Source of the DNA: a bacterium | GTDB lineage: Bacteria; Zhuqueibacterota; Zhuqueibacteria; Residuimicrobiales; Krinioviventaceae | Assembly: GCA_963674595.2 (NCBI GenBank) | Contig: CAXXFV010000006.1 | Coordinates: forward strand, 64,001-128,000 | Length of the DNA stretch: 64,000 bases | Direction of reading: 5' to 3' | Part shown: positions 1 to 28,171 of the stretch, one piece after another | Position numbering within the stretch: position 1 is the stretch's first letter | How the letters are laid out: the number at the start of each line of letters is the position of its first letter | The notes under the pieces: generated by a model | Seen by the model: the letters and a program-made list of their open reading frames with translations, nothing else | Told to the model about the DNA's origin: nothing | The model's database searches: none | Program-made: the position numbers and the translations under genes

Positions 1-321
1 ATGGTCTTTGATATCGCATTCATTCTTTTCGATCCGAACATAATTTAAAATTTCCGGATAATCTTTTTCCAGTGCCGGTCCCCAGGGCGCTGAGGCCAAA
101 GGGGCCTGACCATGCATTTCTTTATAGTCCCATTGCCTTTCGATTCGAACAATGTTTTCCAGATTTTTATTAAAAGTGTCATAACTTAATTCGTGCTGGA
201 CCCAATAATAGATCATAATACAAGCGGCTAATCCTATGGTTAGGCCAGATATGTTTATAAATGCATATAACTTGTTGCGCAGCAGATTTCTAAAAGCGAT
301 TTTCAAGTAATTTTTCAACAT
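1..321 (-). CDS. ABC permease (MacB/FtsX family), N-terminal part, truncated by the window edge
   Basis: Not in the ORF track. Hand translation from ATG at 321 gives MLKNYLKIAFRNLLRNKLYAFINISGLTIGLAACIMIYYWVQHELSYD..., the same N-terminal signature as the neighbouring permeases. The frame is open to position 1. Confidence 0.9.
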   Translation of the reverse strand, partial: MLKNYLKIAFRNLLRNKLYAFINISGLTIGLAACIMIYYWVQHELSYDTFNKNLENIVRIERQWDYKEMHGQAPLASAPWGPALEKDYPEILNYVRIEKNECDIKDH

Positions 322-333: not shown

Positions 334-2670
334 TTATTCATATTTTAAAGTTTGTACCGGATTTGTCATAGCTGCTTTTAATGTATGAAAGCTGATTGTA
401 AACAAAGCCAACAGTATTGTTATCAGTCCTGTTATGAGAAATGGAGTTACTGAAAGATTTATGCGATAGGCATAGTTTTTCAGCCAGTTGTTGATAAATA
501 ACCAGGAAACAGGCCAGGCTATTAAATTTGCTAAAAGAACCCATTTTGAAATGTTTTTGTAAAAGAGCAAAAGAATAGCCGGTACCGAGGCCCCGGCTAC
601 TTTACGGATTCCGATTTCTTTTGTCCGTCGCTCGACCATAAAGATAGACAATCCAAAAAGTCCCATACTGGAAATAATAATAGTTAACAGAGCAAATGAT
701 GTGAATAATTTTCCCAGTTGTTGCTCAGATTGGTAAAGTGACTCAAAATCCTGGTCCATAAAATTATAAGAAAACGGGAATCCCGGGGCAATGCTGTTTA
801 TTGTTTTTTCGATATGTTGTAAAGATGCCTCTATTTCTGATGGTTTTATTTTTATGGCCAGATAATTATACCACCTGGGATCAAGATCAAAGGCACAGGG
901 TTTAATTTCAGAGTGAAGAGAATTGAAATTAAAATCTTTAATAACACCGATAATGCGGCCGTTACCTGATATGGATTTCCCTACGGGATTTTCGAGTCCC
1001 ATTTGTTTAACCGCCGTTTCGTTGATAACAAAACCCAGGCTGTCTGATGCAATATCCTCTGAAAAAAATCTGCCGGCGGCCATATTTATTTGAAACGTTT
1101 CAGTAAAATCAGGAGATACCGAAATAATATTCATCAAAATTGATTTTTGCTGATCGTTTCCTTCCCATTGATTAACATCGATACTTGCAAAGGCTTTTAT
1201 ACCAATTTTGTCTGATAGAACAGCGACATGAGTTATAGATGGTTTTTTAAGCAATTCATGTTTGATGGTATTGACTTTTGATTTACTCTCTCTATTTAGA
1301 GGAACAAATACAATGTGACTTTTCTCAAATCCCGGATTTTGTGCACGAAGATAATTCAGTTGACGTGAGATAAAAAGAGTCGCAACGATTAATATAGCTG
1401 TCATTGTAAATTGGAAAATAACAAGAACAGACCGGAACAAAGATGAACCGGAGGCCTGTTTACCTTTAAAAATAGCCACTGGTTTCAGTGAAGACAAATA
1501 CAAAGCCGGATAACTACCGGAAATAATGCCGGTAAATATAGATAGTATTAAAAGAGCGCCTATGAGCGGTAAGTTGTGCAGGATATTAAAGGTCAGATAT
1601 TTACCTGAATACTGGTTAAAGACCGGTACTAACAACTTGACAATTAACAGGCTTGAAAACAGTGATAAAATTGTGATAAAAACAGCTTCCAGATAAAACT
1701 GGATTGTCAGGTCCAGTTTGTTTGCACCGACAACTTTACGCAATCCGATTTCTTTTGTTCGAACAGATGTTCTCGCCGTGGTCAGGTTCATAAAGTTAAT
1801 ACAGGCAATGAGCAAAACAAATACGGCAATAACGGTAAAAATATAAATATAGGTAATGATACCGCCGCCGTTGATATTGCGGATATGTATGTCTTTTAAG
1901 GCCTGAAGGTATAATTTCGGTTTCCACTTGAAAGTAGCGGACTGTGCGGCAAAGTCTGCAATTTTGGTGTTCAAGTCGCTCACATTCGTATTCTCATTGA
2001 GCAATACAAATGTATTATAGCCCCATTCGTGCCAATTATTTTCATCACCGCTTCCCATCAATTCTTTATAATGTTTAAAGGGAAAAAACAGTTCACATTG
2101 AAAATAACTGTTTTTCGGAATGTCTTTAATAACGGCTGTTATTTTAAAATCGGTTTTATTGTTTACCGTAATTATTTTATCCAGAGGTTCCGTATCGCCA
2201 AACAGTTTGTGCGCCATTGTCTCCGTAATAACAACAGAGTAGGGAAGTGTCAGAGCAGATTGCTTGTCTCCTTTAACAAAATCATAGGAAAAAATATCAA
2301 AAAAATCGGGATTGGCAAAACTACTCTTTGTTTCTAAAACTGATTCGTTTCGAGTGATCAGTAACCTGTCCTGCAATTTATAGGTTGTTGATTTTGTGAT
2401 TTCAGGAAATTTATTTTTTATCGCCTTTGCCAGGGCCGTCGGTGTGGAGGCATAATTGCGCATTTCTTTATATGTGGCATCTTTTAAATTGACTCTGTAA
2501 ATGGAACCTGTGTTTTTATGAAACGAGTCATAGCTTAATTCATGCTGAATCCACACCATGATAAAAACGCAAACCGACAATCCGGCTGTTAATCCGATTA
2601 TATTGATAAACGTAAATAATTTCTGTTTACGCATAATTCGTAATATTATTTTTAAATGATTGAAGAGCAT
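334..2670 (-). CDS. ABC transporter permease, duplicated MacB_PCD + FtsX architecture
   Basis: 778 aa; motifs INIIGL, ELSYD, IACINFMNL...KEIGLRKVVGA, second half RTKEIGIRKVAGAS, C-terminal NPVQTLKYE. Confidence 0.95.
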   Translation of the reverse strand: MLFNHLKIILRIMRKQKLFTFINIIGLTAGLSVCVFIMVWIQHELSYDSFHKNTGSIYRVNLKDATYKEMRNYASTPTALAKAIKNKFPEITKSTTYKLQDRLLITRNESVLETKSSFANPDFFDIFSYDFVKGDKQSALTLPYSVVITETMAHKLFGDTEPLDKIITVNNKTDFKITAVIKDIPKNSYFQCELFFPFKHYKELMGSGDENNWHEWGYNTFVLLNENTNVSDLNTKIADFAAQSATFKWKPKLYLQALKDIHIRNINGGGIITYIYIFTVIAVFVLLIACINFMNLTTARTSVRTKEIGLRKVVGANKLDLTIQFYLEAVFITILSLFSSLLIVKLLVPVFNQYSGKYLTFNILHNLPLIGALLILSIFTGIISGSYPALYLSSLKPVAIFKGKQASGSSLFRSVLVIFQFTMTAILIVATLFISRQLNYLRAQNPGFEKSHIVFVPLNRESKSKVNTIKHELLKKPSITHVAVLSDKIGIKAFASIDVNQWEGNDQQKSILMNIISVSPDFTETFQINMAAGRFFSEDIASDSLGFVINETAVKQMGLENPVGKSISGNGRIIGVIKDFNFNSLHSEIKPCAFDLDPRWYNYLAIKIKPSEIEASLQHIEKTINSIAPGFPFSYNFMDQDFESLYQSEQQLGKLFTSFALLTIIISSMGLFGLSIFMVERRTKEIGIRKVAGASVPAILLLFYKNISKWVLLANLIAWPVSWLFINNWLKNYAYRINLSVTPFLITGLITILLALFTISFHTLKAAMTNPVQTLKYE

Positions 2671-2691: not shown

Positions 2692-4194
2692 TTAATCCTG
2701 AAAATGTGTTTGAAAAAATGAAAAAAACTCCGGGATCATTTGATACCACTCGTCATGATGATGTCCGCCATCAAAAAGGACATATTTATGATCCATGCCT
2801 TTTGTTTGTAATAACGAATGAAATTCTTCCGCCACCTTGTTTAATCCCAGTTCATCACTGTTGCCGCAGGTTATAAAAATATTTTGTTTAATTTTTTGCT
2901 GAGAATTGGAAACGATATAAAAGGGATTTTTTTCTACATATTCTTTTTGGGGTCTGTGCAGAACGCCGGAAACAGATACGACAGCTTTAAACCTGTCCGG
3001 ATACCTCAGTCCGAAACTCATGGCGGCAGTGCCACCGTTTGATAAGCCGATGATCCCGCAGGTGTTTTCGTTGACCCGATATTTACTTTCAACACAGGGT
3101 ATCAGTTCCTGGATAAAACTTTTTTCCAGATTTTTACCCGTTAAAGGCTCTACAAGAAACCTGGAACCTCGTGATCCCTGAGTGCCAATCAGGATAAAGG
3201 GTTCAACCTTTTTGGATAGGATCAAGTCATTATATATTTGATCCAGTCGACCGTTAACCAATGTTCCGTATATTTCGCTTCCGCCGCCAAAAGCGTAAAT
3301 AACCGGATATTTTTTGTTTTTATTCGTATAATAATCGGGCGGCAAGTACACACCGAAAACCCGTTCCTCGGATAAAATATCTGATTTATAATAATCCCTT
3401 ATCAAATAAAACGGCTGTTTTATTAATTCGCCATTTTGCAAAAAAAGTTCGTCAATAAAAATCCTTTTTGAAGATTGATAATCCATTTCAATTTGAAATA
3501 AATATTGACTTGTTCCGGAATTTTCTTTTTTGCCCAATGGTTGAATTTCAATGTGCCGGGGAAATTCACCGAATAATTGATAATCGTTTTTTAACTTCAA
3601 CTGTTCAAAAGAGAGGTCTGTGCTACCGGATAATTGACTGATTATATTTTCAACAAGAGGTTTCCAGGCATCTGTTTTAGGAGTATAGGGCAGGTACTGG
3701 TTGTTTTTAATAAAATCCTGTAATTTTATAATTGATGGAATTCTATTATAAAACCCGCCGCGTTTGGAATTATTTTCAATTATAAAAGAGAGCTTTACCT
3801 CTTTATTAGTATTTATAGAAGCCGGAATGTAGAATAGCGAATTCTTCCAGTTTTCAATCCGGAATAAAGGCGAAAGTGAACCGCAGGTGCCAACCAGGGA
3901 ATCGTTCCAATTGGCTTTAACAGCTTCACCAACTTTACCAATCATCAGTATTAAATCCGTGTTTACAAAATCGTCGGGAATCGTTTCGCGTATTGAAACA
4001 TTAAATTTTCCGATTTGCTCAAAGAGTAATTTGTCAGTAGGCTTTTCAATTTTAATCTGTGATTGCTGCGAGGGTGATGACTCTGCTTGAATGGTGTAAT
4101 TGCCGGTTAATTCTAACATATCCTGACTGGAAGAGATTTGACAGGTACAGAACACAATCACTAAAAATAGAAAGATATAACGTTTTTTATTCAT
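2692..4194 (-). CDS. Secreted alpha/beta-hydrolase (putative esterase, Fes/XynB-like C-terminal domain)
   Basis: Signal-like N-terminus; VYLPPDY...KYPVIY, nucleophile elbow GLSNGG, CGNSDELG, C-terminal GGHHH. Confidence 0.8.
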   Translation of the reverse strand: MNKKRYIFLFLVIVFCTCQISSSQDMLELTGNYTIQAESSPSQQSQIKIEKPTDKLLFEQIGKFNVSIRETIPDDFVNTDLILMIGKVGEAVKANWNDSLVGTCGSLSPLFRIENWKNSLFYIPASINTNKEVKLSFIIENNSKRGGFYNRIPSIIKLQDFIKNNQYLPYTPKTDAWKPLVENIISQLSGSTDLSFEQLKLKNDYQLFGEFPRHIEIQPLGKKENSGTSQYLFQIEMDYQSSKRIFIDELFLQNGELIKQPFYLIRDYYKSDILSEERVFGVYLPPDYYTNKNKKYPVIYAFGGGSEIYGTLVNGRLDQIYNDLILSKKVEPFILIGTQGSRGSRFLVEPLTGKNLEKSFIQELIPCVESKYRVNENTCGIIGLSNGGTAAMSFGLRYPDRFKAVVSVSGVLHRPQKEYVEKNPFYIVSNSQQKIKQNIFITCGNSDELGLNKVAEEFHSLLQTKGMDHKYVLFDGGHHHDEWYQMIPEFFSFFQTHFQD

Positions 4195-4243: not shown

Positions 4244-4423
4244 TTACTCATACCTCAAACTCTCCACCGGATTGGCGGTAGCTGCACGGACCGTTTGAAA
4301 ACTGATCGTTAATAAAGCGATAACCAGTGCAGATACCCCTGCCAGCAAAAACGGCCAGATGGTTAAATCAATTCGATAGGCAAAGTTTTGCAGCCATTTG
4401 TTCATAGCGTACCAGGCAAGGGG
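4244..4423. repeat. Permease 3'-tail repeat, copy A
   Basis: 176/180 identical to 9097-9276 by manual alignment; similar to 6751-6939 and 13400-13552. Confidence 0.95.
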
Positions 4424-6706
4424 CCAGGCGATGAGGTTGGCGATTAAAATCAATACTAATAATTCTTTGATAAGGAAATTGATGATATTTGGTATTGATG
4501 CGCCAAATATTTTTCGTATCCCAATCTCTTTTGTCCTTTTTTCAGTAGTAAATGCAATTAAACCGTATAGACCCAAACAAGCGATGATAATAGCCAGAGA
4601 GGATGAGAGATTCAAGAGCAAAATTGTTTTTAATTCGGATTTGTATATTTTTTCAAAATGTTCATCCAAAAAGAAAAATTCAAAGGGACGGTCTGGAAAA
4701 TGCTCCGGCCATTTTTTTGCCATATAGTGTAAACATTCTGAAACCTGAATTGGATTAATTTTGACTGAGAGATATTTTCCCCAGCCGATATAAAAAACAA
4801 GCGGTTGTATTTTTTTATAAACAGGCGCAAAATTAAAATCTTTAACCACACCGATGACTCTGCCAGGTTTGTTTTGTGACCATGCTGAATGAAATATTTT
4901 GTTGATCGGCTCTTCCCATCCAATTGTTTTGACGGCTGTTTCATTCACTATATAAGCATGTGTTGCATCTGTTCCATAGTCTTGAGAAAAATCTCTTCCT
5001 TTAATAATTTCAAAATTATATGTTTTTATAAAATCGTAATCTACTCTAATTGTTGGAAAACTGGTTTTATTATCATGTTGTTCCAGCATTACTGGTGCGT
5101 CACTGTACTTGTTGCCTTCCCACCAAAATCGCATTGAACGTTTACCTGTCATACCACTTGGAAAGTCTGAAGAAGCAGAAACGTTTAAAATCCCGTTATG
5201 TTGTTCCAGTTGTTTTTTATATGACAGATGTTTTTGTTTACCCCAGTTTCCCCGAAGCGGAATTACCAGAATTTGGTTTTTAAACACACCAAGTTGTTTT
5301 TTATGCATATATTTCAGTTGATTTGCAAAAATTAACGTTGTACATATTAATGCAATACAAATTACAAATTGCGAAACGACTAGAACCTTTTTAAAAGTGA
5401 ATTTGGTATGTCTATTTGAAAAGGCCTTTTGGAAAACGGAAACAGGATGAAAACCGGACAGGAACACTGCGGGGTACCATCCAGCAATTAAACCAAGAAA
5501 GAGTGTGATAATCAGAAAACCCAATATAAGGGGCCAGTTTTGAAAATAATGCAATGTCAGGTTCCGGTCCACAAGTTGACTGAAAAAGGGTAATATTAAT
5601 TCCGTTAAAAGCAAAGCGGCAATAAAAGCAAAAATCGCTGTAAATAGTGATTCGCCAAGAAATTGTATAATTAAAGATTTACGTTGTGCTCCAATGACTT
5701 TACGAACCCCTATTTCATGCGCTCGATTTTCAAAACGGGATGTTGATAAATTCATATAATTGATACAGGCAATAACAAGAATTAAAAGGGCAATAACAGA
5801 TAGCATTATTATTTGCCTGTAATTTTCATTGGTTTCAAGGCCGTTCCTCCCCATTATATAAAGATGTGTTTTGGTGAGTGGCTGGAAAGCCGGAAGCCTT
5901 GTAATTTCTTTGGGATAATCCGGGCTCGGATGTTTATTAGCAAATTCAATGAGTTTATTTTCCAATGTTGAGGGTGAATGCTTTTTATCCATTAACACAA
6001 AAGATTTAAAAGTATTTGATCTGCGCCATCTGTCCCAGGGTGAAGGAGAAATCCCAATCACCTCTTCAGCGCAGGACATGGACGCCAGAAAGTCAAATTT
6101 TATGTGTGAATTATCCGGAATATTTTTTAATACGCCTGTAATTGTAAAATCGAATTTTTTAAATTGATTGTCATATACAATAATTTTACCAACAGGGTTT
6201 TCGTCTCCGAAATATTTTTCAGCCATTTGTTCAGTCAATACGATGGAATAGGGATTGACAAGCGCTGTCCTTGGGTTACCTTGTATTAAGGGGTATGTAA
6301 ATATTTCAAATACTGTTGCATCTGCAAAAAGTATATGTTCTTCATAAAACCGATTTTCGCCGTAGGACAGTAATATTTTTTGTTCGTTTCTCAAAGGGGC
6401 ATATATTGCGCTTGTAAACCGACAATAATTTAGAATTTCCGGAATTTCATCACAAATTGCCGGTGTCATGGGTGCCGATGTTTCTGCAAAGAAAATTGAA
6501 TCTGGTCCTCGACGTATTTCTGTATGGACTTTATAAATGCAATCTGCATTTTCGTGAAACCGGTCTGAACTTGCCTCATGATACGCGTAAATAAAAATCA
6601 TAAATGCAACTGTTAATCCGACCGACATACCAAAAACATTTATTAAAGTAAATGCTTTATGTTTTAACAAGTTTCGAAGTGCAATTTTCACATAATTTTT
6701 TAACAT
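4244..6706 (-). CDS. ABC transporter permease (MacB/FtsX duplicated)
   Basis: 820 aa; MLKNYVKIALRNL, IACINYMNL, EIGVRKVIGA, ANPVESLRYE. Confidence 0.95.
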   Translation of the reverse strand: MLKNYVKIALRNLLKHKAFTLINVFGMSVGLTVAFMIFIYAYHEASSDRFHENADCIYKVHTEIRRGPDSIFFAETSAPMTPAICDEIPEILNYCRFTSAIYAPLRNEQKILLSYGENRFYEEHILFADATVFEIFTYPLIQGNPRTALVNPYSIVLTEQMAEKYFGDENPVGKIIVYDNQFKKFDFTITGVLKNIPDNSHIKFDFLASMSCAEEVIGISPSPWDRWRRSNTFKSFVLMDKKHSPSTLENKLIEFANKHPSPDYPKEITRLPAFQPLTKTHLYIMGRNGLETNENYRQIIMLSVIALLILVIACINYMNLSTSRFENRAHEIGVRKVIGAQRKSLIIQFLGESLFTAIFAFIAALLLTELILPFFSQLVDRNLTLHYFQNWPLILGFLIITLFLGLIAGWYPAVFLSGFHPVSVFQKAFSNRHTKFTFKKVLVVSQFVICIALICTTLIFANQLKYMHKKQLGVFKNQILVIPLRGNWGKQKHLSYKKQLEQHNGILNVSASSDFPSGMTGKRSMRFWWEGNKYSDAPVMLEQHDNKTSFPTIRVDYDFIKTYNFEIIKGRDFSQDYGTDATHAYIVNETAVKTIGWEEPINKIFHSAWSQNKPGRVIGVVKDFNFAPVYKKIQPLVFYIGWGKYLSVKINPIQVSECLHYMAKKWPEHFPDRPFEFFFLDEHFEKIYKSELKTILLLNLSSSLAIIIACLGLYGLIAFTTEKRTKEIGIRKIFGASIPNIINFLIKELLVLILIANLIAWPLAWYAMNKWLQNFAYRIDLTIWPFLLAGVSALVIALLTISFQTVRAATANPVESLRYE

Positions 6707-6750
6707 AATTCATCCCACTTAAACAAAATTATACTTCCAGATTCTATAGT

Positions 6751-6939
6751 CTACTCATACCTTAAACTCTCCACCGGATTGGCCGTGGCTGCCCGGACCG
6801 TTTGAAAACTGATCGTCAGTAAGGCAATTACCAGCGCTGCTAATCCTGCCAGCAAAAACGGCCAGATCGTTAAATCAATTCTGTAAGCGAAACTTTGCAG
6901 CCATTTGTTCATAGCGTACCAGGCAAGGGGAGCGGCGAT
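6751..6939. repeat. Permease 3'-tail repeat, copy C
   Basis: About 87% identical to 9097-9276 by manual count; also shares the further AGCGGCGAT with that copy. Confidence 0.9.
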
Positions 6940-9078
6940 TCCAAGTGCTACGAATACACTAATGGTTATTTTTTTTGTAAATAGAACTAAAATATGTAAA
7001 ACAGAAGCTCCGTTGACACGCCGGATACCGATTTCTTTGGTTCGCTGTTCTGTAGAAATTGCGGTTATACCAATAAGTCCAAGACAGGCAAGGAAAATAG
7101 ACAGAACAGTAAATACATAAAAAAGATGTTCAAGACGAACTTCAAAACGATAGAGATTATCAATATAATTATCAAGAAATTGCCCATCCAAAGGCCATGC
7201 GGGTATAATTGATTTCCAGGTTTTTTCAATATCTTTGATTGTGCTGAAATCTGCGTGTCCATTCAACTTTACGATTATTGATAGGAACCTATTCTTTTCC
7301 ATCAATTCTATATATGTCGGGAGCTGTTTTTCGTGTAAGGAAAAATAATTAAAATCCTTTATGACGCCGACGACCTCTTTACCACCGTGAAATGTTTTTC
7401 CAACAGGATTTTTCCAGTTTAGTGTTTTAACGGTTGATTCTGTTAGAATGATCGCATTACTGTCGCTATAGCCTGGGAAGAAAAAACGTCCTTCAATGAG
7501 TTCAAAGTTCATAGTCTGTAAAAAATTGTCTCCAACTTCCAGTTCCTTAAAACTCATTTGTTCACCGGGTTCTTGTTTCCTTATTACGAGGTTACATCGT
7601 CCTCCTGCGTTTACAGGTGTTTGGCCGTAACTTATGGCCGAAATATTAGGATGTTGAAGCAATTGGTCTTTTAATGCATTATAATCACCCTCATCAAAAT
7701 TGATCCTATAATGTATGTTGATCATATATATATTATCTTTACGGAATCCCAGGTTTTTATTGTGTATAAAGTGAATTTGTGTTCGCATCAAAGCCAAAGT
7801 CGTTAATAGTATTATCGCGATTGTAAATTGAACCGTAATGAGTATTGATCGCATGATATGATTTTGTTTTGGCGGCGCTGATTTTCCAAGAATTGTCAAA
7901 GGATCTGTTCCGGCTGCAAGCCAGGCGGGGTAGAGGCCCGACAACAGTGTTGTTATCACAAGAATTATCAAAGCAAAAATATAAAAGAAAAAATTATTCC
8001 ATAGTCGTGTTTGATAATCAATACCGATAATATTTTGTAAAACCGGATTAAGAATATGCATGAGGAGAATCGCTAATAACAAACTTGTTAATGAAATAAT
8101 AAATGATTCTGTTAAAAATTGTACGATAAGGCTGCTTTTATTGGCATTGAAAATTTTTCGTATTCCTATTTGTACACGTTTTTGTACTTGTTGCGCTATA
8201 GTTATATTGATGATGTTTATACATGCAATTAAAAGTATGAGAATAGCGATTGCTGTAAAAAGAAAAATATATATCTGCGGCAAAACCTTTGCATACTCGT
8301 CTTTAACTTGCGATTGTAAATGTATGTCACTAATCTGCTGCAATTCCAGTTTCTTACAAGCATCGTTTTTTATGGTTTTTATGAATTCATTCAGGTTTAT
8401 ATTGAGTTGTGCTTTTGGAACCGTGGTCGGCTTTTTAATATAAATAATTGGTCCATAATAAGTCCAGCTATCAAGATTTTGGGACCATCTGGACCAGCTT
8501 AAAATTGCATCAAATTGCATGTGACAATTTGTTGGAATGTCTTGGATGACAGCCGTAACTGTGTAGTTTTGAGAATTATCAATTTTAACAATGTTGCCAA
8601 CAGGATTCTGTTCTCCAAACAGTCTTTTAGAAAGGCTTCTTGTAAGCACGAGACTGTTTGGAGCTTCAAGTGCACTCTCTGGATTACCCTGTATGAATTC
8701 GAACGAAAAGACGTTAAAAAAGTTTGCATCCGCTCGCCAGTTTTTAATATTCTGAAGAGTTTTATCCTTATAGGAAAATATTTCACCACCATAAATTTCC
8801 ATTCTGGTTAGAATTGTTGATTCGGGCAAGTATGTATTAATCGCATTGTATAAAAGAAATGAGGTTCGTATTTGGTCATTTTGTATTAAACGATAGATGT
8901 TATCATAATCTTTAAAAAATCTATCAAAATTTTTTTCGTGTTGAATATATGCAAAAATCGTAAAAAAACATGCTATTCCAACAGCTAAACCAATGATGCT
9001 TAAAAGTGAGTATAGTTTTTGATTTTTAATCGACCGAATTGCGTATTTTATGATGTTGAAAGTCATGTTTTCTCCCAT
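6751..9078 (-). CDS. ABC transporter permease (MacB/FtsX duplicated)
   Basis: 775 aa; IACINIINI, QIGIRKIFNA, RTKEIGIRRVNGAS, ANPVESLRYE. Confidence 0.95.
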   Translation of the reverse strand: MGENMTFNIIKYAIRSIKNQKLYSLLSIIGLAVGIACFFTIFAYIQHEKNFDRFFKDYDNIYRLIQNDQIRTSFLLYNAINTYLPESTILTRMEIYGGEIFSYKDKTLQNIKNWRADANFFNVFSFEFIQGNPESALEAPNSLVLTRSLSKRLFGEQNPVGNIVKIDNSQNYTVTAVIQDIPTNCHMQFDAILSWSRWSQNLDSWTYYGPIIYIKKPTTVPKAQLNINLNEFIKTIKNDACKKLELQQISDIHLQSQVKDEYAKVLPQIYIFLFTAIAILILLIACINIINITIAQQVQKRVQIGIRKIFNANKSSLIVQFLTESFIISLTSLLLAILLMHILNPVLQNIIGIDYQTRLWNNFFFYIFALIILVITTLLSGLYPAWLAAGTDPLTILGKSAPPKQNHIMRSILITVQFTIAIILLTTLALMRTQIHFIHNKNLGFRKDNIYMINIHYRINFDEGDYNALKDQLLQHPNISAISYGQTPVNAGGRCNLVIRKQEPGEQMSFKELEVGDNFLQTMNFELIEGRFFFPGYSDSNAIILTESTVKTLNWKNPVGKTFHGGKEVVGVIKDFNYFSLHEKQLPTYIELMEKNRFLSIIVKLNGHADFSTIKDIEKTWKSIIPAWPLDGQFLDNYIDNLYRFEVRLEHLFYVFTVLSIFLACLGLIGITAISTEQRTKEIGIRRVNGASVLHILVLFTKKITISVFVALGIAAPLAWYAMNKWLQSFAYRIDLTIWPFLLAGLAALVIALLTISFQTVRAATANPVESLRYE

Positions 9079-9096
9079 AGAACGATATTTTTAGTA

Positions 9097-9285
9097 TTAC
9101 TCATACCTCAAACTCTCCACCGGATTGGCTGTAGCTGCCCGGATTGTTTGAAAACTGATCGTTAATAAAGCGATAACCAGTGCAGATACCCCTGCCAGCA
9201 AAAACGGCCAGATGGTTAAATCAATTCGATAGGCAAAGTTTTGCAGCCATTTGTTCATAGCGTACCAGGCAAGGGGAGCGGCGAT
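9097..9285. repeat. Permease 3'-tail repeat, copy B
   Basis: Contains a 131-nt run fully identical to copy A (9146-9276 = 4293-4423). Confidence 0.95.
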
Positions 9286-11454
9286 CATACCGGCGGCAAG
9301 GACAAGTTTAATAAACGGTATGGTAAACGTCGTAAAAAGCTGTGGGAGGGAAGCGCCGACGATTTTCCTTATACCGATTTCTTTTTTACGCTGTTCAACC
9401 GTCAGTCTGGTCAAGCCAAACAGTCCTAACCCGGCCAGCAAAATTGTTAAAACAGAGGCAAAGGAAACAAGTGCCGATGTATTTTGTTCTGCCCGATAGG
9501 TACGTTCAATACTCTCATCCAAAAATCGATATTCAAAAGGATCATTGGGAGCAAGTTCGCCATAGGTTTTTTTTATAAAATCTATTGTCGCGGGTATTTG
9601 GTGTCCGTTAATTTTTATAAAAATATAATTCAGCCAATAGGAATCGATTTTCAGCACAACCGGGTTAATATTATAATGAAGCGGCTGGGCATGAAAGTCT
9701 TTAACCACGCCAACGATATATCCCGGCGAGTCCCAGAAAGAAAACCGTTTGCCGATGGGATTTTCCATTCCCATGGCTTTAACAGCCGTTTCGTTGACTA
9801 TATAAGCGGCGGAATCATCACCGGCAAAATTTTTCGAAAAAGGGCGTCCTTTAACAATGTTCATATCAAAAGTTTCAAAATAGTCATAATCCACCAGACC
9901 GGCGTTCATGCGTATATGTTGTCCCGGCTGTTTACCTTCCCAATCATAATCTCCGGGTGAAGAGCCGATATTACTCGGCAATTGAAAGGAGGCTGTTACA
10001 TTTGCAATATTTGTATTTTGTTTTAATTTGTCTTTAAATGTTGAATAGTTGTCTAAAAATTCTTTTTTCATTCTCAGGTAAATAACCTGGTCCTTTGTAA
10101 AACCCAAATCTTTGTTTTGAATAAAGGAAAGCTGTTTGGATATAATAATTGTGCCTGTAATTAGAAAAATCGAAATCATGAATTGTAAAATGATCAGACT
10201 TGCACGAAAAACAGTTTTTATCTGTTTGTTTAAAGATGTGCTCTTTAACATTAAAAAGGGCTGATAATTGGACAATACCAGTGAGGGATAGGCTCCGGCC
10301 AAAAAAGCTGTTAAAATTGTTATTGCAACACTGCCTGCCAGGATAGTATGGTTCAGGACGGATGTAAATTGAAAGGACTTGCCAGATATTTGGTTGAATG
10401 CCGGCAGAACAAAATCAATTAATAAAAGAGATAAAAGTAATGCAAATAAGGTAATAATCAGGGTTTCTAAAAAAAACTGACCGCAGAGATATCTTTTGGA
10501 ACTACCGAATATTTTCCGCATACCGATTTCATTTAGTCGACGCGAAAACTGGGCGGTGGTTAAAATGATATAGTTTATGCCGGCTATTAAAAGAATAAAA
10601 ACAGCCAGTGCCGAAAATATCCATACATATTTTATGCTGCCCCGGTTATTCATATCATAACTCAGGTTGGAGTGTAGATGGATTTTACCAAAGGGCTGCA
10701 AATAGACATAATTCTTTTTTTCAGGAATATATTTTTGCAAAAATGAGCGAATTTTTGTATTGACGGCTGCTAACGGCGCATCCGGTTGTAACTGCACGAA
10801 CGAGTAATAGGTATGGGCTCGCCAAAAGTCTATATCAACGCGTTCCCGTAAATATTCAAACGGGACCAATATATCAAATTGTAAACTGGAATTTTCAGGG
10901 ACGTTTTTAAATACACCGGTAATTTGCATAGAGTGTTTTTCTGCAAAGAGTATGGTTTTTCCAATGAGATCATCATCACCGAAATATTTTTTAGCCATGT
11001 TTTCTGACAGCATCATTGTAAAAGGTTCGACAAGCTGGGGCGAACCATTGTCTTTGACAATCGGAAAAGAAAACATGTCCAGAAAATCGGGGTCAACAAA
11101 GGCCACATTTTTTTCTTTATAAATATTATCCTCTTTTTTAATAATCCACTCACCAAAGTTATTACATCTTGTGGCTTTTATGATTTCAGGAAATTCGTTT
11201 TTCAATGCCGGTGCAAGGGGTCCCGGGGTAACGGCCTGATGAATTATCTGGTCGCTTGTTTCGTTTTGAATAACCACCCGGTAAAGGTTATCAATATTCT
11301 GATGAAAACGGTCAAAAGTCAGTTCATCATGCACCCATAAAAATACAAGGATAGCACTGGAAAGACCCAAAGTCAGTCCGATAATATTGATAAAAAAGGT
11401 GGTTTTGTTTTTTGCTGCTTGTCTGAAAAATGTTTTTATAATATTTTTCAACAT
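9097..11454 (-). CDS. ABC transporter permease (MacB/FtsX duplicated)
   Basis: 785 aa; INIIGL, DELTFDRFH, EIGMRKIFGS, KEIGIRKIVGAS, ANPVESLRYE. Confidence 0.95.
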   Translation of the reverse strand: MLKNIIKTFFRQAAKNKTTFFINIIGLTLGLSSAILVFLWVHDELTFDRFHQNIDNLYRVVIQNETSDQIIHQAVTPGPLAPALKNEFPEIIKATRCNNFGEWIIKKEDNIYKEKNVAFVDPDFLDMFSFPIVKDNGSPQLVEPFTMMLSENMAKKYFGDDDLIGKTILFAEKHSMQITGVFKNVPENSSLQFDILVPFEYLRERVDIDFWRAHTYYSFVQLQPDAPLAAVNTKIRSFLQKYIPEKKNYVYLQPFGKIHLHSNLSYDMNNRGSIKYVWIFSALAVFILLIAGINYIILTTAQFSRRLNEIGMRKIFGSSKRYLCGQFFLETLIITLFALLLSLLLIDFVLPAFNQISGKSFQFTSVLNHTILAGSVAITILTAFLAGAYPSLVLSNYQPFLMLKSTSLNKQIKTVFRASLIILQFMISIFLITGTIIISKQLSFIQNKDLGFTKDQVIYLRMKKEFLDNYSTFKDKLKQNTNIANVTASFQLPSNIGSSPGDYDWEGKQPGQHIRMNAGLVDYDYFETFDMNIVKGRPFSKNFAGDDSAAYIVNETAVKAMGMENPIGKRFSFWDSPGYIVGVVKDFHAQPLHYNINPVVLKIDSYWLNYIFIKINGHQIPATIDFIKKTYGELAPNDPFEYRFLDESIERTYRAEQNTSALVSFASVLTILLAGLGLFGLTRLTVEQRKKEIGIRKIVGASLPQLFTTFTIPFIKLVLAAGMIAAPLAWYAMNKWLQNFAYRIDLTIWPFLLAGVSALVIALLTISFQTIRAATANPVESLRYE

Positions 11455-11600
11455 GTTGGGGATTCCTTTTGTGTTTCTAATTTAAACTCAACTATAAAAT
11501 GGGTTCAAAGTTGGAAAGCCATCCTATCTGAGGCTATTTCGCCAGTCTATTAGCGATTATCAACGTTAGTTTTAAAATTATCCAATATTACATTTAGTGA

Positions 11601-13313
11601 TCATTTATTTTCGTTGTTGAATAGATAAGCATAGGCATTTTTAAATAGCATCAGTTTCAACATTCGTTTTGCCAGTGTGTTTCCCGGGAAAACTGTTAAA
11701 GCTTTTTTATAGTATTTTTCTGCCTGGGTATAATTTCCTGCGATTTCATTACGCTGTGCAAGCGCATACCAGCTTTCTGTCCAGTCAGGGCATTCTTTGG
11801 TATATAAAGTCAGAAAGTTTGCATAATCTTCAATACTCTTTTTGTTTGGCAGCAGCCAAAAAAGAAAATCATTTATCAACATTCCTTTATTAATTCCTGT
11901 TGCTTTGTATTGTTTTATAAAATTGTAATATACTTTTTCAAGCCCTTCATAGCCATTGTTTGTATATGCTTCTGACAGCTCTGTTTTGAATTGTTCTTTC
12001 AGGTTTTTGACGTTATCAAAATTGAAAATAAACTCAAGAACAGGGTCTTCATTGTTGCGAAAATTTTTTGATGATAGAGGGATATAAAAATCCGGTCTTG
12101 TGCAATCTGCCATCTCCCATTCAGTGGTGTCCTGATGGTAAATTTGCGATGTACGTACAGGCAATTTACTGTTCGGAAGGGTAAACATTCTTTGTGCCCC
12201 GTAGTGATTTGGCCTGCCGCCTGTATTCTCACCAACAAATGTTGCATTTGTATAAATATCAAATTGTGTTGCAAAATGTTGTGATGCAGAGCCGGTTACT
12301 CGTCCGATTATGACAAATAGTTTATCAGGTTTATCCAGGTTTGGACGAGCTATTATACCTTTAAGAAGAGGCATTTCAAAATGATCACCGCCTCCATTGT
12401 TCCTAACATCGAGGACAAGTTTTTCTGCTCCCTTTTCATCAAATTTTTCAAGCACCTCTTTATAAAATCTGTCAAAATCGCCTTCAGATTTTGGCTGCAT
12501 CTCTTTTAAATACACAAACATTGTTTTGTGCTCTGGAATGTATTGATACCAGTATGCATCTCCTGGTTTAGACAAATATAGGGGCAGCGGTTGATTCGAC
12601 ACATCATTCAACTCGAGAAACCCTTTTTTATTTTGACCGTTCCTGTAAGTGATAATTAATTTTAACACCTCCATAAATGGCATAGGTTCAATTGTGTATT
12701 CGAATTGTTCTGATAATTCATTTTGTAAAGTAAGAACAAGTTTTTTGTCCGTTATCCCAACATTACAATAATCTAATGCACCAACCAGAGAAAAATATAA
12801 ATCGCATAATGCCAATCGTCCGTTATAATTATCACCATTAATTAAATTCATTAATTTATCACGAGTATCATCGGCCGTCAGGTTTCCAAATTTTAATACC
12901 TTGCATCCCAATATTTTTTTATGCTTTGCACTTATGCCTTTTACGAATATTCCATCTGAAAATTGATACATAAAAACAGGATACATATCATAATAGCTTA
13001 GAGCTGTAGAATCTTCTGTTTGCCATAGGGCAATGCCGGTATGCATGTCTTTAATTTTTGCCATTAATTCGTGAATACCAAACACCACTTTTTGATCGGA
13101 TAAATCAGGTATACGTTTTTTTAATTTTTCTGCAGCATCGAGGAATTCGTTTTTATTTATATTTGCGTAAACATTCGGGTGCTGTGTTTCCAAACGGCCA
13201 ATAAGATAATCAATATCCTGGACCCACTTTTCTGTATTCTTGTTTATTTGTGCAAAAATTGAATGAGTCATTATTACAATTGTAAGAATAATAAATTTTA
13301 TCTGATTCATCAA
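11601..13313 (-). CDS. Secreted S41-family (tail-specific protease-like) peptidase with C-terminal TPR
   Basis: Signal peptide; LVLDVRNNGGG, IGRVTGSASQ (catalytic Ser region), VGENTGG; TPR-like WYALAQ...GNYTQAEKYYKKALTVFP. Confidence 0.75.
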   Translation of the reverse strand: MMNQIKFIILTIVIMTHSIFAQINKNTEKWVQDIDYLIGRLETQHPNVYANINKNEFLDAAEKLKKRIPDLSDQKVVFGIHELMAKIKDMHTGIALWQTEDSTALSYYDMYPVFMYQFSDGIFVKGISAKHKKILGCKVLKFGNLTADDTRDKLMNLINGDNYNGRLALCDLYFSLVGALDYCNVGITDKKLVLTLQNELSEQFEYTIEPMPFMEVLKLIITYRNGQNKKGFLELNDVSNQPLPLYLSKPGDAYWYQYIPEHKTMFVYLKEMQPKSEGDFDRFYKEVLEKFDEKGAEKLVLDVRNNGGGDHFEMPLLKGIIARPNLDKPDKLFVIIGRVTGSASQHFATQFDIYTNATFVGENTGGRPNHYGAQRMFTLPNSKLPVRTSQIYHQDTTEWEMADCTRPDFYIPLSSKNFRNNEDPVLEFIFNFDNVKNLKEQFKTELSEAYTNNGYEGLEKVYYNFIKQYKATGINKGMLINDFLFWLLPNKKSIEDYANFLTLYTKECPDWTESWYALAQRNEIAGNYTQAEKYYKKALTVFPGNTLAKRMLKLMLFKNAYAYLFNNENK

Positions 13314-13399
13314 GTTTCCTTGTTCTACGTTTATTTTTCTATTGTTGGTTTTAAATTCAGTTTGTTAAATACCAATATTAATTATGTCTCTTAAGATTA

Positions 13400-13552
13400 C
13401 TACTCATACCTTAAACTTTCCACCGGATTGGCCGTAGCTGCCCTTATCGTTTGAAAACTGATTGTTAATAAGGCAATTAATAACGCTGAAAATCCTGCCA
13501 GTAGAAAGGGCCAGATGGTTAAATCGATTCGATAGGCAAAGTGTTGCAGCCA
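13400..13552. repeat. Permease 3'-tail repeat, copy D (more diverged)
   Basis: Encodes WLQHFAYRIDLTIWPFLLAG...ISFQTIRAATANPVESLRYE with clearly aligned nucleotide sequence. Confidence 0.85.
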
Positions 13553-15796
13553 ATTTTGAACAAAATACCATGCGATGGGAGCAGCAAAAATTGCTGCAAG
13601 ACTCAATAAAAAGATGAATTCTTTGGAAATCATATAGAATATTTGCAAAACAGAAGCGCCTAAAACTTTTCTTACGCCGATTTCTTTGGTGCGTTGTTCC
13701 GTACTGTAGGATATCAATCCCAAAAGGCCTAAACAGGCGATAAATATTGCCAGCGTGGTAAAGGTATTTACTACTTTACGGATTGCCTGTTCTCCGCCAT
13801 ATTGATAAGCATAAATTTGATCCAAAAAACGGTATTCTAATGAGGATGACGGTGCAAATTGTTTCCATTTTTCGTTCAATAGTTCAAGTGCTTCATTTGT
13901 TTTGTCAGGTGCAACGCGTATGGTCATCCAGTTTAGGCTTTTGGGTTTAAGAAAAATTGTGAATGCATCGATTTTGTGATGGAGCGATTCTGTATGAAAG
14001 TCTTTAACAACACCGATAATTTTCCCTGGCTTTTCCATAAATGCCGGTACCCAAAATGATTTGCCGACTGCTGTTTCCCAGCCGAGTTTCTTTTTTAATG
14101 TTTCGTTTATTATATAAGCATCCTTAACATCGGTTTGCATAAGCGGTGAAAAATCCCGTCCTTCGACAAGTTTAAGATTAAAGAACTCTAAAAAATTATA
14201 ATCGACCGCTGTTAATGAGGTTATCCACGATTGATCAGGTATTTGTCCTTCGAACTGAAATGTTTGACCTTCAAAACCTGGAAAATTATTTGGACCAAAG
14301 GCCGAAACATTTTTAATCAGTGTATTGGATAAAAGTTCATGTTTAATAGCAGTCAGGTTTTTTTGTACTGTTTCCGGCATTTTAACAGTAACAACTTGTG
14401 TTTTATCAAATCCAAGGTCTTTATTTTGAATCCAATTCAGTTGTTTTTCAATAAACAGGGTACAAATGATTAATATAATTGAAATGCAAAATTGTGCAGT
14501 AACCAATATCTTTTGCAGGCTTTTGCCTTTCTTTTTATCCTTTGATGAGTTAAACACACTTAGGGGTTGTGGAAGCGACATACTCAGGGCCGGATAAATT
14601 CCTGCCAAGATACCCGTTAAACCCGATAGAATAGCCATGACCATATAAATCAATAATTTATTATTATGGTAAAAACTAAATTCATTATTAAAAGTATTAT
14701 TTGTTTGACTGATTATTGCAAAAATCAATGCAGCTAATATCATGGATATGAAAGACGTTACAACAGATTCACTTATAAATTGTATTGTTAGTTGTTTTCG
14801 ATGAGCGCCGATCATTTTTCGAATACCAACTTCTTTTGAACGTCTCAAAGAACGTGCTGTTGTCAGGTTTATATAATTTATACAGGCAATAACGAGAATT
14901 AATATGGCGATAAAAGAAAGAACATAGACAAAAACAATATCAAACTTTTTCCAGTTTATTTGATCGAACTCTAGTTTCCCGGAATAGAGGTGCATGTCTT
15001 TTAAGGATTGCAAATAAACATCGATTTCCATATCCGGATGGTATTTATTGCAAATACCGGCAATTTTTTTATCCACACTTTTGGGATCAATATTCGATTC
15101 AAGCATGACATACGTATAAAATCCGGCGTCAATTTTTTCTTTTTCTGATTTTTGTTTTTCCAATAGCCAGCTTTTGGGAAAAGGGGCCAGCATGTTGATT
15201 TGAAGATGTGAAGTGTTGGGTATTTCTTTTAATACGGCAGAAATGATATAAGAATTATTCTCTGCAATAGTTATGCTTTTTCCGACTGGATTTTCCCGGC
15301 CAAAGATTTTTTCCGATAATTGCTTTGATAAAATGAGGCTGTTTGGGTTTTTAAAAGCATTTTGGGCATTCCCATATAAAAAATCAAAATCGAAAAATTG
15401 AAAAAAGGAGGGATCTGTAAAATAGAATGAATAAACCTGTGAAATATTATCATTATATTTTACAGGGGTTGCCCCGTTTATACCATATAATCGAACAAAA
15501 TCTTTAATTTCCGGGTAATCCTGTTTTAATATTCGACCCATCCATTCAAACGAACCACAGTGCTGCAATGCGCCAATACCTTCAATATTGGCATCGAGAA
15601 TCGTTCGATAAATGTTGTCTCTGTTTTTGTGAAATCGATCAAATGAAAGATGATAGCCCATAATGATATAAATGAAAAGACAACATAAAAATCCTATTGT
15701 TAATCTCAGGATGTTTATCATTGTATAATATTTTTGTCGAACCAAATAACGTATTGTTGTTTTTAGATAATTTTTAATAATTGACATTTCGTTCAA
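13400..15796 (-). CDS. ABC transporter permease (MacB/FtsX duplicated); the true start may be the ATG at 15787
   Basis: 798 aa; IACINYINLTTAR, KEVGIRKMIGA, RTKEIGVRKVLGAS, ANPVESLRYE. Confidence 0.95.
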   Translation of the reverse strand: MNEMSIIKNYLKTTIRYLVRQKYYTMINILRLTIGFLCCLFIYIIMGYHLSFDRFHKNRDNIYRTILDANIEGIGALQHCGSFEWMGRILKQDYPEIKDFVRLYGINGATPVKYNDNISQVYSFYFTDPSFFQFFDFDFLYGNAQNAFKNPNSLILSKQLSEKIFGRENPVGKSITIAENNSYIISAVLKEIPNTSHLQINMLAPFPKSWLLEKQKSEKEKIDAGFYTYVMLESNIDPKSVDKKIAGICNKYHPDMEIDVYLQSLKDMHLYSGKLEFDQINWKKFDIVFVYVLSFIAILILVIACINYINLTTARSLRRSKEVGIRKMIGAHRKQLTIQFISESVVTSFISMILAALIFAIISQTNNTFNNEFSFYHNNKLLIYMVMAILSGLTGILAGIYPALSMSLPQPLSVFNSSKDKKKGKSLQKILVTAQFCISIILIICTLFIEKQLNWIQNKDLGFDKTQVVTVKMPETVQKNLTAIKHELLSNTLIKNVSAFGPNNFPGFEGQTFQFEGQIPDQSWITSLTAVDYNFLEFFNLKLVEGRDFSPLMQTDVKDAYIINETLKKKLGWETAVGKSFWVPAFMEKPGKIIGVVKDFHTESLHHKIDAFTIFLKPKSLNWMTIRVAPDKTNEALELLNEKWKQFAPSSSLEYRFLDQIYAYQYGGEQAIRKVVNTFTTLAIFIACLGLLGLISYSTEQRTKEIGVRKVLGASVLQIFYMISKEFIFLLSLAAIFAAPIAWYFVQNWLQHFAYRIDLTIWPFLLAGFSALLIALLTISFQTIRAATANPVESLRYE

Positions 15797-15823
15797 ACCT
15801 TAATTAAGAAGGAAAAGAATTTT

Positions 15824-25736: not shown

Positions 25737-26426
25737 CTAGATATGGAACTGACTGTTGAGGTTTTCGGTAACAACATGACCGTCAAACAAGTGAATCGTC
25801 CGGTTTCCATATTCGGCATAGGTTGGTGAGTGAGTTACCATGATAATCGTGGTGCCGTTATTGTTTAACTCGGTCAGAATGTTCATCACTTCGTCACCAT
25901 GCGCAGAATCGAGATTACCGGTCGGTTCATCAGCGAGAATAATTTTAGGTTTGGCGACAACGGCCCGTGCAACGGCAACACGCTGCTGCTGTCCTCCTGA
26001 TAGCTGTTGTGGAAAATGGTTGCGGCGGTGCATAATTTGCATGTGTTCCAACGCTTCCTCAACACGTTTTTTACGATCGGACGTGTTTACTTTGAGGTAT
26101 AATAACGGCAGTTCAACATTTTCAAAAACAGTCAATTCGTCGATCAGATTAAAACTCTGGAAAACAAACCCGATATTTGATTTTCGCATATTGGCCCGTT
26201 GGCGTTCCGTATATTTTGCCACTTCTTCATCCAGAAAAAAATATTCGCCGTCAGATGGATTGTCCAGCAATCCAAGCAGGTTCAGCAGGGTTGATTTTCC
26301 GCAGCCTGAAGGCCCCATAATGGATACGAATTCTTTTTCTCTTATTTCAATGTTGATATTATTTAACGCTGTTGTTTCAACCTCTTCGGTGGTATAAATT
26401 TTCTTTAAATTTTTAGTCTTAATCAT
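25737..26426 (-). CDS. ABC transporter ATP-binding protein (MacB/LolD/FtsE subfamily)
   Basis: Walker [19 protein letters not shown], signature LSGGQQQRV, Walker [13 protein letters not shown]-loop VTHS. Confidence 0.97.
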
Positions 26427-26796: not shown

Positions 26797-28047
26797 TTAT
26801 TTCAATAACAGCTTTTCAATATCACCAAAATTATCATAAGAGGACGTAATGACTTTTTCACCCACTTTTAGGCCTTCCAGAACTTCATAAACATTCAGGT
26901 TTTGTCGTCCCAAACGAATGGGGCGTTTCACGGCAAAATTACCGGATTCATCCACCACATAAACCCACTGACCGCCGGTTTTCTGGTAAAAACCGCCTCT
27001 GGGTAAAAGCGTTGCAACAGTTAAATCGCCCAGTTCCAGTTGAATATGCAGGGTTTGCCCACGTCTTATGCCCTCCGGTTCCTTGTCGGCAAATTCAAGG
27101 TCTACTTCAAAGCGGCCTTCCAAAACTTCAGGGAATATTTTTTTAACAATCATTTTATAGTTTTCTCCGGCGAATTCGAAACGGCCTGTGCGTCCCAATT
27201 CAATTCGGGCAATGTAATGTTCATCAACCTTTGCCCTGACTTTAAATCCATCCAGTACATCAACCTGTCCCAGTCGTTGTCCTGTTGATTTTGATTCGCC
27301 TACTTCGGCATTCAACGATGTAAGCTGACCGGTGACCGGTGCTTTAAGGACAAGATTTTCCATATTTTGTTTTACTATTTCAAGGTTGCTTTCCATGCGA
27401 TTCAGCGAGATTTCCAGATTTGTAATCTGTATCTCACGGAACAATGAATCCTGTTTATGCGAAGTCAATGTTAATTCACGTTTTTTAAGAGAATACTCGT
27501 AATTATCCCGTGCCAGTTCAAATTCTTCCTGTGAAATAAGGTTTTTATCTAAAAGTTGCTGCGCTCTTTCAAAAGCCCTTTTCTGCTTTTTAATGGTAAA
27601 ATTTAATTCAATTAACTGGCCCTGAAGAGACAATTTGTTTTGTTCCATCTGCAGCCGTGTGTTACGAAGATTGTTACTTTGTGCAAACAATTCGGCTTCC
27701 CGGTACATAATTTCCATTACCAAATTTGTATTGGTGAGTTTTAAAATTTTATCACCTTTTTGTACAAAGTTTCCGGCTTCAAGATACAATGTGTCAACCC
27801 GTCCGCCTTCAATGGCATCCAGATAGATAGTTTTTATGGGGATAACATTGCCTATTATCGGAATAAACTCTTGGAAATCGCCTTCCGTGACGGTGGAAAT
27901 GGTTATCCGTTCGGTTTGCACGTTTAGTTTGCTGCTGTGGTCGCCGAATAAAATGTTATAAAATACGATAATAACAAATAAAGCAGCAATAGAGTAAATG
28001 AGAATATTTTTCAGGGTCCATTTTTTTTTCTTGATCTGTCTGTCCAT
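26797..28047 (-). CDS. Efflux periplasmic adaptor (membrane-fusion protein, HlyD/MacA family)
   Basis: MDRQIKKKKW followed by a single TM; lipoyl halves LDAIEGGRV...VQKGD and KAPVTGQL around a coiled coil; C-terminal EVLEGLKVGEKVITSSY. Confidence 0.92.
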   Translation of the reverse strand: MDRQIKKKKWTLKNILIYSIAALFVIIVFYNILFGDHSSKLNVQTERITISTVTEGDFQEFIPIIGNVIPIKTIYLDAIEGGRVDTLYLEAGNFVQKGDKILKLTNTNLVMEIMYREAELFAQSNNLRNTRLQMEQNKLSLQGQLIELNFTIKKQKRAFERAQQLLDKNLISQEEFELARDNYEYSLKKRELTLTSHKQDSLFREIQITNLEISLNRMESNLEIVKQNMENLVLKAPVTGQLTSLNAEVGESKSTGQRLGQVDVLDGFKVRAKVDEHYIARIELGRTGRFEFAGENYKMIVKKIFPEVLEGRFEVDLEFADKEPEGIRRGQTLHIQLELGDLTVATLLPRGGFYQKTGGQWVYVVDESGNFAVKRPIRLGRQNLNVYEVLEGLKVGEKVITSSYDNFGDIEKLLLK

Positions 28048-28100: not shown

Positions 28101-28171
28101 TGGATTTTAAGCTTATACAAGCTTGAATTTTTAGCTGTAAAAAAATCAGGTATACGGTTTCATTACAAAGG

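Follow-up and report, generated by a model that had tools for sequence, protein, structure and literature searches.

Probable segmental concerted evolution of the 3' ends of tandem MacB/FtsX-type permease genes in a bacterium of the Zhuqueibacterota

Concerted evolution confined to the 3' segments of paralogous genes has been described for babA/babB and homA/homB of Helicobacter pylori (Pride & Blaser 2002, cited in PMC3960876). The subject of this report is a comparable pattern in an array of MacB/FtsX-type ATP-binding cassette (ABC) permease genes located on a 64,000-nt stretch of DNA from a bacterium of the Zhuqueibacterota (assembly GCA_963674595.2, contig CAXXFV010000006.1, positions 64,001 to 128,000; the whole stretch is hereafter called the window). 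In this array, the last 180 nt of four diverged paralogs, named D, B, C and A in the order of transcription, have very probably undergone segmental concerted evolution by repeated gene conversion, as judged from sequence comparison. The H. pylori genes represent the closest described phenomenon (PMC3960876, in part): there, as appears to be the case here, gene conversion within a genome homogenises the 3' segment of membrane-protein paralogs alone, the remaining segments keep their allelic or orthologous history, and the 3' segments are more alike within than between strains. In contrast to those dispersed outer-membrane adhesin loci, the genes of the window encode ABC permeases of the inner membrane and are arranged as a single co-oriented tandem array, their bodies are far more diverged (28–38% amino acid (aa) identity), four or five genes are jointly involved, the pattern recurs across phyla, and nothing points to a role in antigenic or phase variation.

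Rhs/CDI systems and similar polymorphic toxins are characterised by tip exchange, proposed to proceed through homologous recombination at a constant segment, and by orphan modules. A first-pass annotation of the window had regarded the permease array as a mirror image of this arrangement. As in those toxins, a constant segment adjoins a variable one, and recombination at the constant segment has been proposed to account for swaps. However, the polarity is reversed, with a constant tail on a variable body, and what varies is an entire transporter body of 700 aa instead of a toxin tip. In addition, a blastn search of the 64-kb window with the tail of A returned no orphan tails or other orphan modules, no displaced bodies or fragments and no immunity-like partners, and no actual swaps are evident in this genome. 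With regard to protein architecture, the array can be compared with Escherichia coli YbbAP-TesA and MacAB-TolC, for which the excerpted sections of PMC12646458 and PMC5985334 describe no tail homogenisation. Like YbbAP-TesA, it comprises fused double MacB-type permeases with two periplasmic domains, a separate ATPase and exported hydrolases encoded alongside, the partner of YbbAP being the esterase TesA (PMC12646458, in part); like MacAB, it includes a HlyD/MacA-like adaptor; and the modelled coupling helices would contact the ATPase as in both systems (PMC12646458 and PMC5985334, in part). Unlike these systems as presented in those sections, a single ATPase gene and a single adaptor gene precede at least 10 permeases. 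No description of tail homogenisation in MacB/FtsX-type permease arrays was found in the literature searched, and its occurrence there appears to be new, although the process itself is already known.

All four genes lie on the minus strand: permease A at 4244..6706 (820 aa), C at 6751..9078 (775 aa), B at 9097..11454 (785 aa) and D at 13400..15796 (798 aa). The tail of A (4244..4426) consists of the final 180 coding nt (residues 761–820) together with the stop codon and corresponds to the homogenised tract. Over these 180 nt, the tail of B (9097..9279) differs from that of A at only four positions (A coordinates 4277, 4286, 4291 and 4292), with a longest exact run of 131 nt (4293–4423); both values, as well as the distance of 4,853 nt between A and B (9097 minus 4244), agree with the first-pass annotation. 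In a blastn search of the window with the tail of A (4244–4432), the B tail was matched at 96.3% over 189 nt (9097–9285), the C tail (6751..6939) at 87.2% (6752–6939) and the D tail (13400..13582) at 83.9% over 155 nt (13401–13555). The C tail is 87–88% identical to those of A and B, and the D tail 78–81% identical to those of A, B and C over 180 nt; the previous estimate of about 87% for C and the claimed relationship of D (78–84%) were thereby confirmed. All eight matches of the A tail in the window are 3' ends of full-length permease genes. The similarity begins without transition at codon P762 of A, about halfway along transmembrane helix 7 (TM7; between ...IAW and PLAWYAMNKWLQ), and stops at the stop codon, beyond which the intergenic DNA is unrelated; the identity between B and C reaches about 9–12 nt farther upstream than the tail tract of B. 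In 30-codon sliding windows, pairs among A–D exceed about 70% identity in the last three windows only. The A–D bodies are 0.46–0.51 identical at the nucleotide level and 0.30–0.35 at the aa level, in agreement with the divergent bodies noted at first pass; for A and B, tails are 0.96 identical at the nucleotide level versus 0.51 for bodies, and the highest body identity between any two window permeases is 38% aa. The pair A and B thus constitutes an extreme and clean case, in which 60 codons are near-identical including their synonymous sites and the other approximately 730 are diverged like genes of different phyla.

Short-read assemblers use k-mers of about 131 nt, the length of the exact repeat shared by A and B, and the identical tails might be thought to reflect a repeat that was collapsed or joined chimerically during short-read assembly. 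Such an origin is extremely improbable because the copies are graded, C and D being not identical to the others, because each tail is in frame, ends a full-length gene and has private differences, and because the same pattern recurs in loci from cultured-strain records (Labilibaculum filiforme 59.16B and Draconibacterium orientale DSM 25947). Through misassembly, a body might become joined to a downstream flank that is not its own, yet the repeat itself could not arise in this way. For assemblers and annotators, the exact repeats of 130–290 nt at the unit boundaries of such arrays serve as a warning.

Related loci were collected by a tblastn search with the 60-aa tail, using one genome per species, in which the best 80 of 407 confirmed matches gave 79 loci. 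For the comparison of synonymous sites, identical codons were counted at identical residues in tail and body, and the counts were compared by the Fisher test. The codons were identical in 57/60 cases in the tails of A and B versus 124/254 in their bodies (p=1.9e-12) and in 43/58 versus 95/214 for A and C (p=6e-5), whereas the control pair A and F gave 15/30 versus 141/276 (p=1.0). In the A–D set, the same-codon fraction was 0.72 for tails and 0.47 for bodies; the corresponding values in five other homogenised arrays were 0.61–0.82 and 0.34–0.49, and that between tails of different genomes was 0.39–0.50. Codon bias combined with protein constraint was ruled out as the cause by these same-genome and cross-genome controls, and the argument made at first pass from the A–B codons, that protein constraint alone is insufficient, holds. 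Synonymous homogenisation beyond the expectation from codon usage was thus observed, as in concerted evolution. The conserved synonymous sites of A–D could alternatively be attributed to a role of the nucleotide sequence itself, the tail being conserved as an RNA structure, processing site, internal promoter or antisense gene. This proposal is hardly credible, since synonymous sites vary freely in the tails of E–H and between genomes, as seen from the cross-genome fraction above, and the plus-strand open reading frames (ORFs) touching the tails continue into unrelated sequence. An RNA element was rejected: the fold of the A tail with its flank gave z = +0.23, 110 of 200 shuffled sequences folded at least as well, and no Rfam match was obtained in positions 1–30000. 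Internal promoters and terminators were likewise rejected because promoter-like sites (80 versus 75.9 expected) and terminator-like sites (19 versus 15.2) were at the level of shuffled sequences.

Separate trees of tails and bodies, which had been suggested at first pass, were constructed for 44 genes from the window and from seven of the 79 loci. These seven were chosen for their homogenised sets or as apparent relatives of such loci, and the remaining 72 were excluded. The nucleotide tree of the tails contained 11 genome-label changes (minimum 7; shuffled mean 30.1; none of 200 shuffles as low), while the aa tree of the bodies contained 28 (shuffled mean 30.2; 25 of 200 shuffles as low). Tails therefore group by genome and bodies by type, and the two trees are incongruent. 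For instance, the body of L069_+4028 is 80% identical at the aa level to that of L045_+5865, a gene of another locus, versus 28–29% to its own neighbours. Bodies are often closer to relatives in other genomes (80%, 62% and 59% aa) than to members of their own array (24–31%), and the tails of those bodies are still nearest to tails of their own array. In locus L069, the tails share 87–90% mutual identity and at most 79% with any tail elsewhere; between genomes in general, tail identity does not exceed 84%. The nearest nucleotide neighbour lies in the same locus for 60 of the 193 tails with a locus partner. A tail whose nearest relative is in its own array, attached to a body whose nearest relative is elsewhere, is the signature of concerted evolution of a single segment; here, tail similarity is higher within than between genomes, and bodies show the opposite. 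Together with the restriction of synonymous homogenisation to the tail, the incongruent trees strongly support the proposal of the first-pass annotation that gene conversion operates at the constant tail.

The distribution of the remaining differences is informative about the conversion tracts. The four differences between A and B are confined to the last 49 of the 180 nt, for which (49/180)^4 = 0.0055, and this clustering suggests at least two tracts of different age, the younger lying inside the older. Among the parsimony-informative sites of the four tails, nine group A with B and C with D, one groups A with C and B with D, and none groups A with D and B with C. The earlier description of the tails as mosaic was not sustained, given one incompatible site versus nine and given that the motifs cited for it are mostly private single-base differences. 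The clustering of the A–B differences and the varying ends of the tracts in different genomes are as expected for overlapping homology-driven tracts. The third-codon-position GC content (GC3) of the homogenised tails in the window is 0.40–0.55 versus 0.31–0.38 for their bodies; GC-biased conversion may have left a footprint, though not a consistent one.

PF12704 (MacB_PCD) and PF02687 (FtsX) scored above the curated cut-offs in all nine complete permeases of the window, each of which has two FtsX stretches; MacB_PCD was assigned once in A and twice in each of B, C and D. An AlphaFold2 (AF2) model of permease A was obtained from a 44-sequence alignment (predicted local distance difference test (pLDDT) 85, predicted TM-score (pTM) 0.81). 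It consists of two fused MacB-like 4-TM units, each with a periplasmic domain between its first two helices (TM1/TM2) and a coupling helix between the second and the third (TM2/TM3), and its eight long helices span residues 17–45, 294–326, 342–379, 391–417, 433–469, 680–723, 738–772 and 784–809. In a Foldseek search with this model, YbbAP, MacB, LolCDE, BceAB and HrtBA were matched at E <=1e-7; the best full-length structural match was E. coli YbbAP (9ge6_A, E=2.4e-16, TM-score 0.50), followed by MacB and LolCDE, and phmmer with A matched MacB chains at 1.7e-11. The permeases are thus assigned, by model and domain content, to the type VII ABC (MacB/FtsX) superfamily as MacB/YbbP-like proteins with eight predicted helices. 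According to the excerpted text of PMC12646458, YbbP has ten TM helices, including two linker helices between its duplicated 4-TM units. In contrast, the model of A has eight long helices and no linker pair, and its sequence identity to the solved structural relatives is 11–18%. The architecture is therefore related to but distinct from that of YbbP and might define a separate class among the type VII ABC permeases. A search of 5.8 billion proteins with A gave more than 6,000 family matches, the nearest non-self relative being 44–45% identical; the source lineage is poorly sampled, and the permease family is huge and uncharacterised.

In the AF2 model, the homogenised tract maps to the second half of TM7 (TM7b), a short outer loop, TM8 and the C-terminal helix. 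The C-terminal minor coupling helix of MacB touches the nucleotide-binding domain (NBD), according to the excerpted sections of PMC5985334, and the C-terminal helix of the tract probably matches this element. Given this location, it could be proposed that conversion merely supplies variation and that identical tails are fixed by selection because they must match a shared ATPase, and perhaps the adaptor. In accordance with this idea, the only ABC ATPase and the only HlyD protein found in the window head the array of at least 10 permeases, which they presumably serve jointly; the tract of L. filiforme also spans the region of the major coupling helix at −285 nt; and the C-terminal motif (N)PVESLRYE is retained in all nine window paralogs. 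However, five of the nine permeases, presumably served by the same ATPase, possess tails that are 35–65% identical to those of A–D at the aa level, the equivalent module in the first half of the protein (residues 329–431) is not homogenised, and synonymous identity is not required by selection on the protein. Furthermore, permease F preserves the C-terminal end AATANPVESLRYE by means of different codons, and protein-level selection alone is therefore sufficient to maintain the contact motif. Selection for partner matching is thus rather unlikely as the cause of the identical tails; it could possibly act as a filter on conversion, for which it is not required in view of the unconverted members of the array.

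Based on these results, the probable course of segmental concerted evolution was considered. The last 180 nt of the four contiguous paralogs D, B, C and A have very probably been overwritten from one another repeatedly by homologous non-reciprocal recombination, such that the tails evolve in concert while the bodies stay ancient diverged paralogs. The C-terminal block of about 95 residues would be the longest well-conserved block of the family, in which conversion can start, and it may be functionally generic, as it would form a membrane and ATPase-coupling module. In 16 of 36 window pairs, the longest exact match is found in register within the last 300 nt. The tract may have its present location because this block is both long-conserved and generic, so that converted genes would still work. 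Conversion into the periplasmic bodies, which probably bear specificity, would either never have been initiated or have been removed by selection. As tails become alike, further conversion would become easier, and the process could be self-reinforcing. The 130–290-nt direct repeat that ends each unit may also support unequal crossover, leading to loss, gain or reshuffling of units as a side effect. If this course is correct, the module of TM7, TM8 and coupling helix would be marked as a generic, interchangeable part of a large family, with specificity borne by the bodies, a division that would be useful for chimera design and annotation.

Several observations weigh against this interpretation. 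Five of the nine complete window permeases are unhomogenised, with tails showing exact runs of 11–17 nt only. RecA usually needs roughly 20–30 nt of homology, and the start of homogenisation is therefore unexplained by such runs. Conservation does not single out the tail, since the majority-residue frequency is 0.71 there versus 0.78 in the best 60-aa segment (residues 705–764) and 0.74–0.75 in TM1 and TM2, none of which is homogenised in the window despite its higher conservation. The rise in GC3 was found in three of seven loci (the window, L029 and L056) but not in L005, L073, L022 and L074, with a pooled p=0.0125 that is pseudo-replicated. The 79 loci are the best matches to the window tail and thus a biased sample, and, with the nearest non-self protein as distant from A as stated above, conversion is deduced from the comparison of sequences.

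The combination of homogenised tails and diverged bodies is recurrent. Among the matches listed, tail peptide identity across several phyla was 57–80%, and none exceeded 80% aa. A tail pair with at least 0.85 nucleotide identity on bodies below 50% aa was found in five of the 51 loci outside the window that contain two or more permeases (295 pairs); at a tail cut-off of 0.80, such a pair was present in eight of the 51, and 43 lacked homogenised tails. No clear signal of array distance was obtained, mean tail identity being 0.666 for adjacent genes (n=137) and 0.603 for genes six positions apart (n=5). The strongest case is Labilibaculum filiforme (L029), in which five paralogs share 91–97% identical tails on bodies of 24–30% identity. 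The 5' end of the tract varies, lying at −180 nt in the window, at −285 nt in L029, where the tract reaches the conserved KEIGIRK coupling-helix region, and at about −150 to −195 nt elsewhere. Between genomes, tail-versus-tail blastn matches cover about 290 nt at gene ends, and longer ones are found between orthologous units only. On these comparisons, tail homogenisation arose repeatedly and independently in Bacteroidota, Ignavibacteria and related groups.

The first-pass annotation had gone further and interpreted the tail as a recombination handle. In its strong form, the constant tail would be selected because crossover or conversion at it inserts, excises, shuffles or swaps bodies together with their passenger genes without any recombinase. 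Conversion at the tail was corroborated, whereas insertion, excision or shuffling of units was not demonstrated. Every unit boundary carries a tail as a direct repeat, no other long stretch of nucleotide homology links the units, and both passengers in the window directly follow a homogenised tail. Unit turnover is evident in other genomes: only two of 44 testable neighbour pairs, located beside cross-genome body pairs with at least 50% aa identity, appeared orthologous; L069 and L045 share one unit (78% nucleotide identity over 2,432 nt) amid non-orthologous flanking units, and the homology breaks off at the tail of the preceding unit and at the stop codon of the shared unit itself; in L034 and L050, collinearity is interrupted by insertions and replacements the size of a unit, and the anchor units are unequally diverged (70%, 82% and 91% nucleotide identity); two orthologous units occur in swapped order in L029 versus L022; and a segment consisting of a tail and a DUF4933 gene is duplicated in L029. 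On the other hand, the window contains no recent duplicates (bodies at most 38% aa identical), and no orphan tails or bodies by blastn. Among the 45 listed pairs with the most similar tails, of 295 non-window pairs, just one has near-identical bodies (0.78, L021). Tails of different genomes, which do not exceed 84% identity, are poor substrates for exchange between species, and the 43 arrays without homogenised tails at the 0.80 cut-off have equally unconserved neighbourhoods. Gain and loss of units is also expected of any tandem array under selection. An integron- or shufflon-like system is not indicated: no integrase, invertase, transposase or other recombinase was detected among the 16 ORFs scanned in 1–35106, no fixed site exists because the ends of the homogenised tract vary between genomes, and the tails are all direct and not inverted. 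A tail selected as an exchange handle is therefore improbable. The turnover of units is compatible with tail-mediated crossover and equally with ordinary birth-and-death of array genes, and crossover at the tails as a side effect of conversion is plausible; if frequent, it would explain the fast turnover of the arrays. Quite doubtful is the related idea that the tails are maintained as recombinase-free docking sites, at which crossover or long-tract conversion would delete, duplicate, reorder or import bodies and hydrolase passengers. If it were true, the arrays would be combinatorial cassette arrays, allowing rapid retuning of the substrates of one shared ATPase/adaptor engine, and the near-absence of conserved unit neighbourhoods (the two pairs of 44) would be its footprint.

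Some features of individual arrays were noted apart from their tails. The Draconibacterium orientale array (L056) contains an IS200-like (Y1_Tnp) transposase gene between two permeases (15660–16121). Intergenic repeats of about 55 nt are located just after permease stop codons in L034 (10194–10245 and 12687–12743) and L050 (13203–13259); they are 88% identical and inverted between the two loci, none was seen in the window, and they could be small palindromic or REP-like elements. In L045, one permease appears to be split into two ORFs (646–2421, 591 aa; 2533–2991, 152 aa), the second of which has a normal tail, likely as a result of pseudogenisation or a sequencing frameshift, and a BlaR1-like sensor gene follows the array (11203–13077).

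In the window, positions 1–28047 of the minus strand form a single co-oriented, operon-like gene train that encodes an adaptor, an ATPase, at least 10 permeases and two exported hydrolases. The nine complete permeases (775–820 aa) are transcribed in the order H, G, F, E, D, B, C, A, G0. Permease E (15824–18205) has a tail weakly related to those of A–D (0.63–0.67 nucleotide identity), the tails of F (18246–20708), G (20803–23187) and H (23286–25697) are at background (0.46–0.58), and the unhomogenised tail of G0 (334..2670) is 0.60–0.65 identical to those of A–D. The N-terminus of a tenth permease (1..321) continues past the left edge of the window, and the numbers of units and of homogenised tails are therefore lower bounds. 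The first gene of the putative operon (26797..28047) encodes a HlyD-type membrane-fusion (adaptor) protein and is followed at the head of the array by the ABC ATPase gene (ABC_tran, 25737..26426), the only one among window ORFs of at least 150 aa. Both genes directly adjoin the permease array upstream, as would be expected for cognate partners of type VII ABC permeases, and orthologous operon heads are also present in L029 and L056 (66% and 44% aa identity). Between D and B lies a gene for an exported S41 peptidase that contains TPR repeats (11601..13313, minus strand), and after A one for an exported esterase of the alpha/beta hydrolase type (2692..4194, minus strand). These array-embedded exported hydrolases recall, by analogy, YbbAP-TesA, in which a permease is paired with a periplasmic hydrolase; DUF4933 proteins are encoded at the same kind of array position in L029 (14695–16230) and L022 (6206–7777). 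Upstream of the HlyD gene, the region 28085..28190 (minus strand) contains a perfect 18-nt palindrome and the sequence TGGCAC-N5-GTGC, which we take to be a candidate sigma-54 promoter by its consensus, and genes for a sigma-54 activator response regulator and a histidine kinase are located divergently from the array (28287..31002, plus strand). The whole permease array may thus be one sigma-54-dependent, signal-induced operon. Elsewhere in the window, which has a GC content of 38%, three proteins possess type IX secretion C-terminal sorting domains (43975–44463, 52406–53524 and 59662–60936), and glycoside hydrolases of families GH106 and GH43 are encoded (32209–35106; 57906–59492); the sorting domains and glycoside hydrolases suggest a polysaccharide-degrading bacterium of the Bacteroidota/FCB group.

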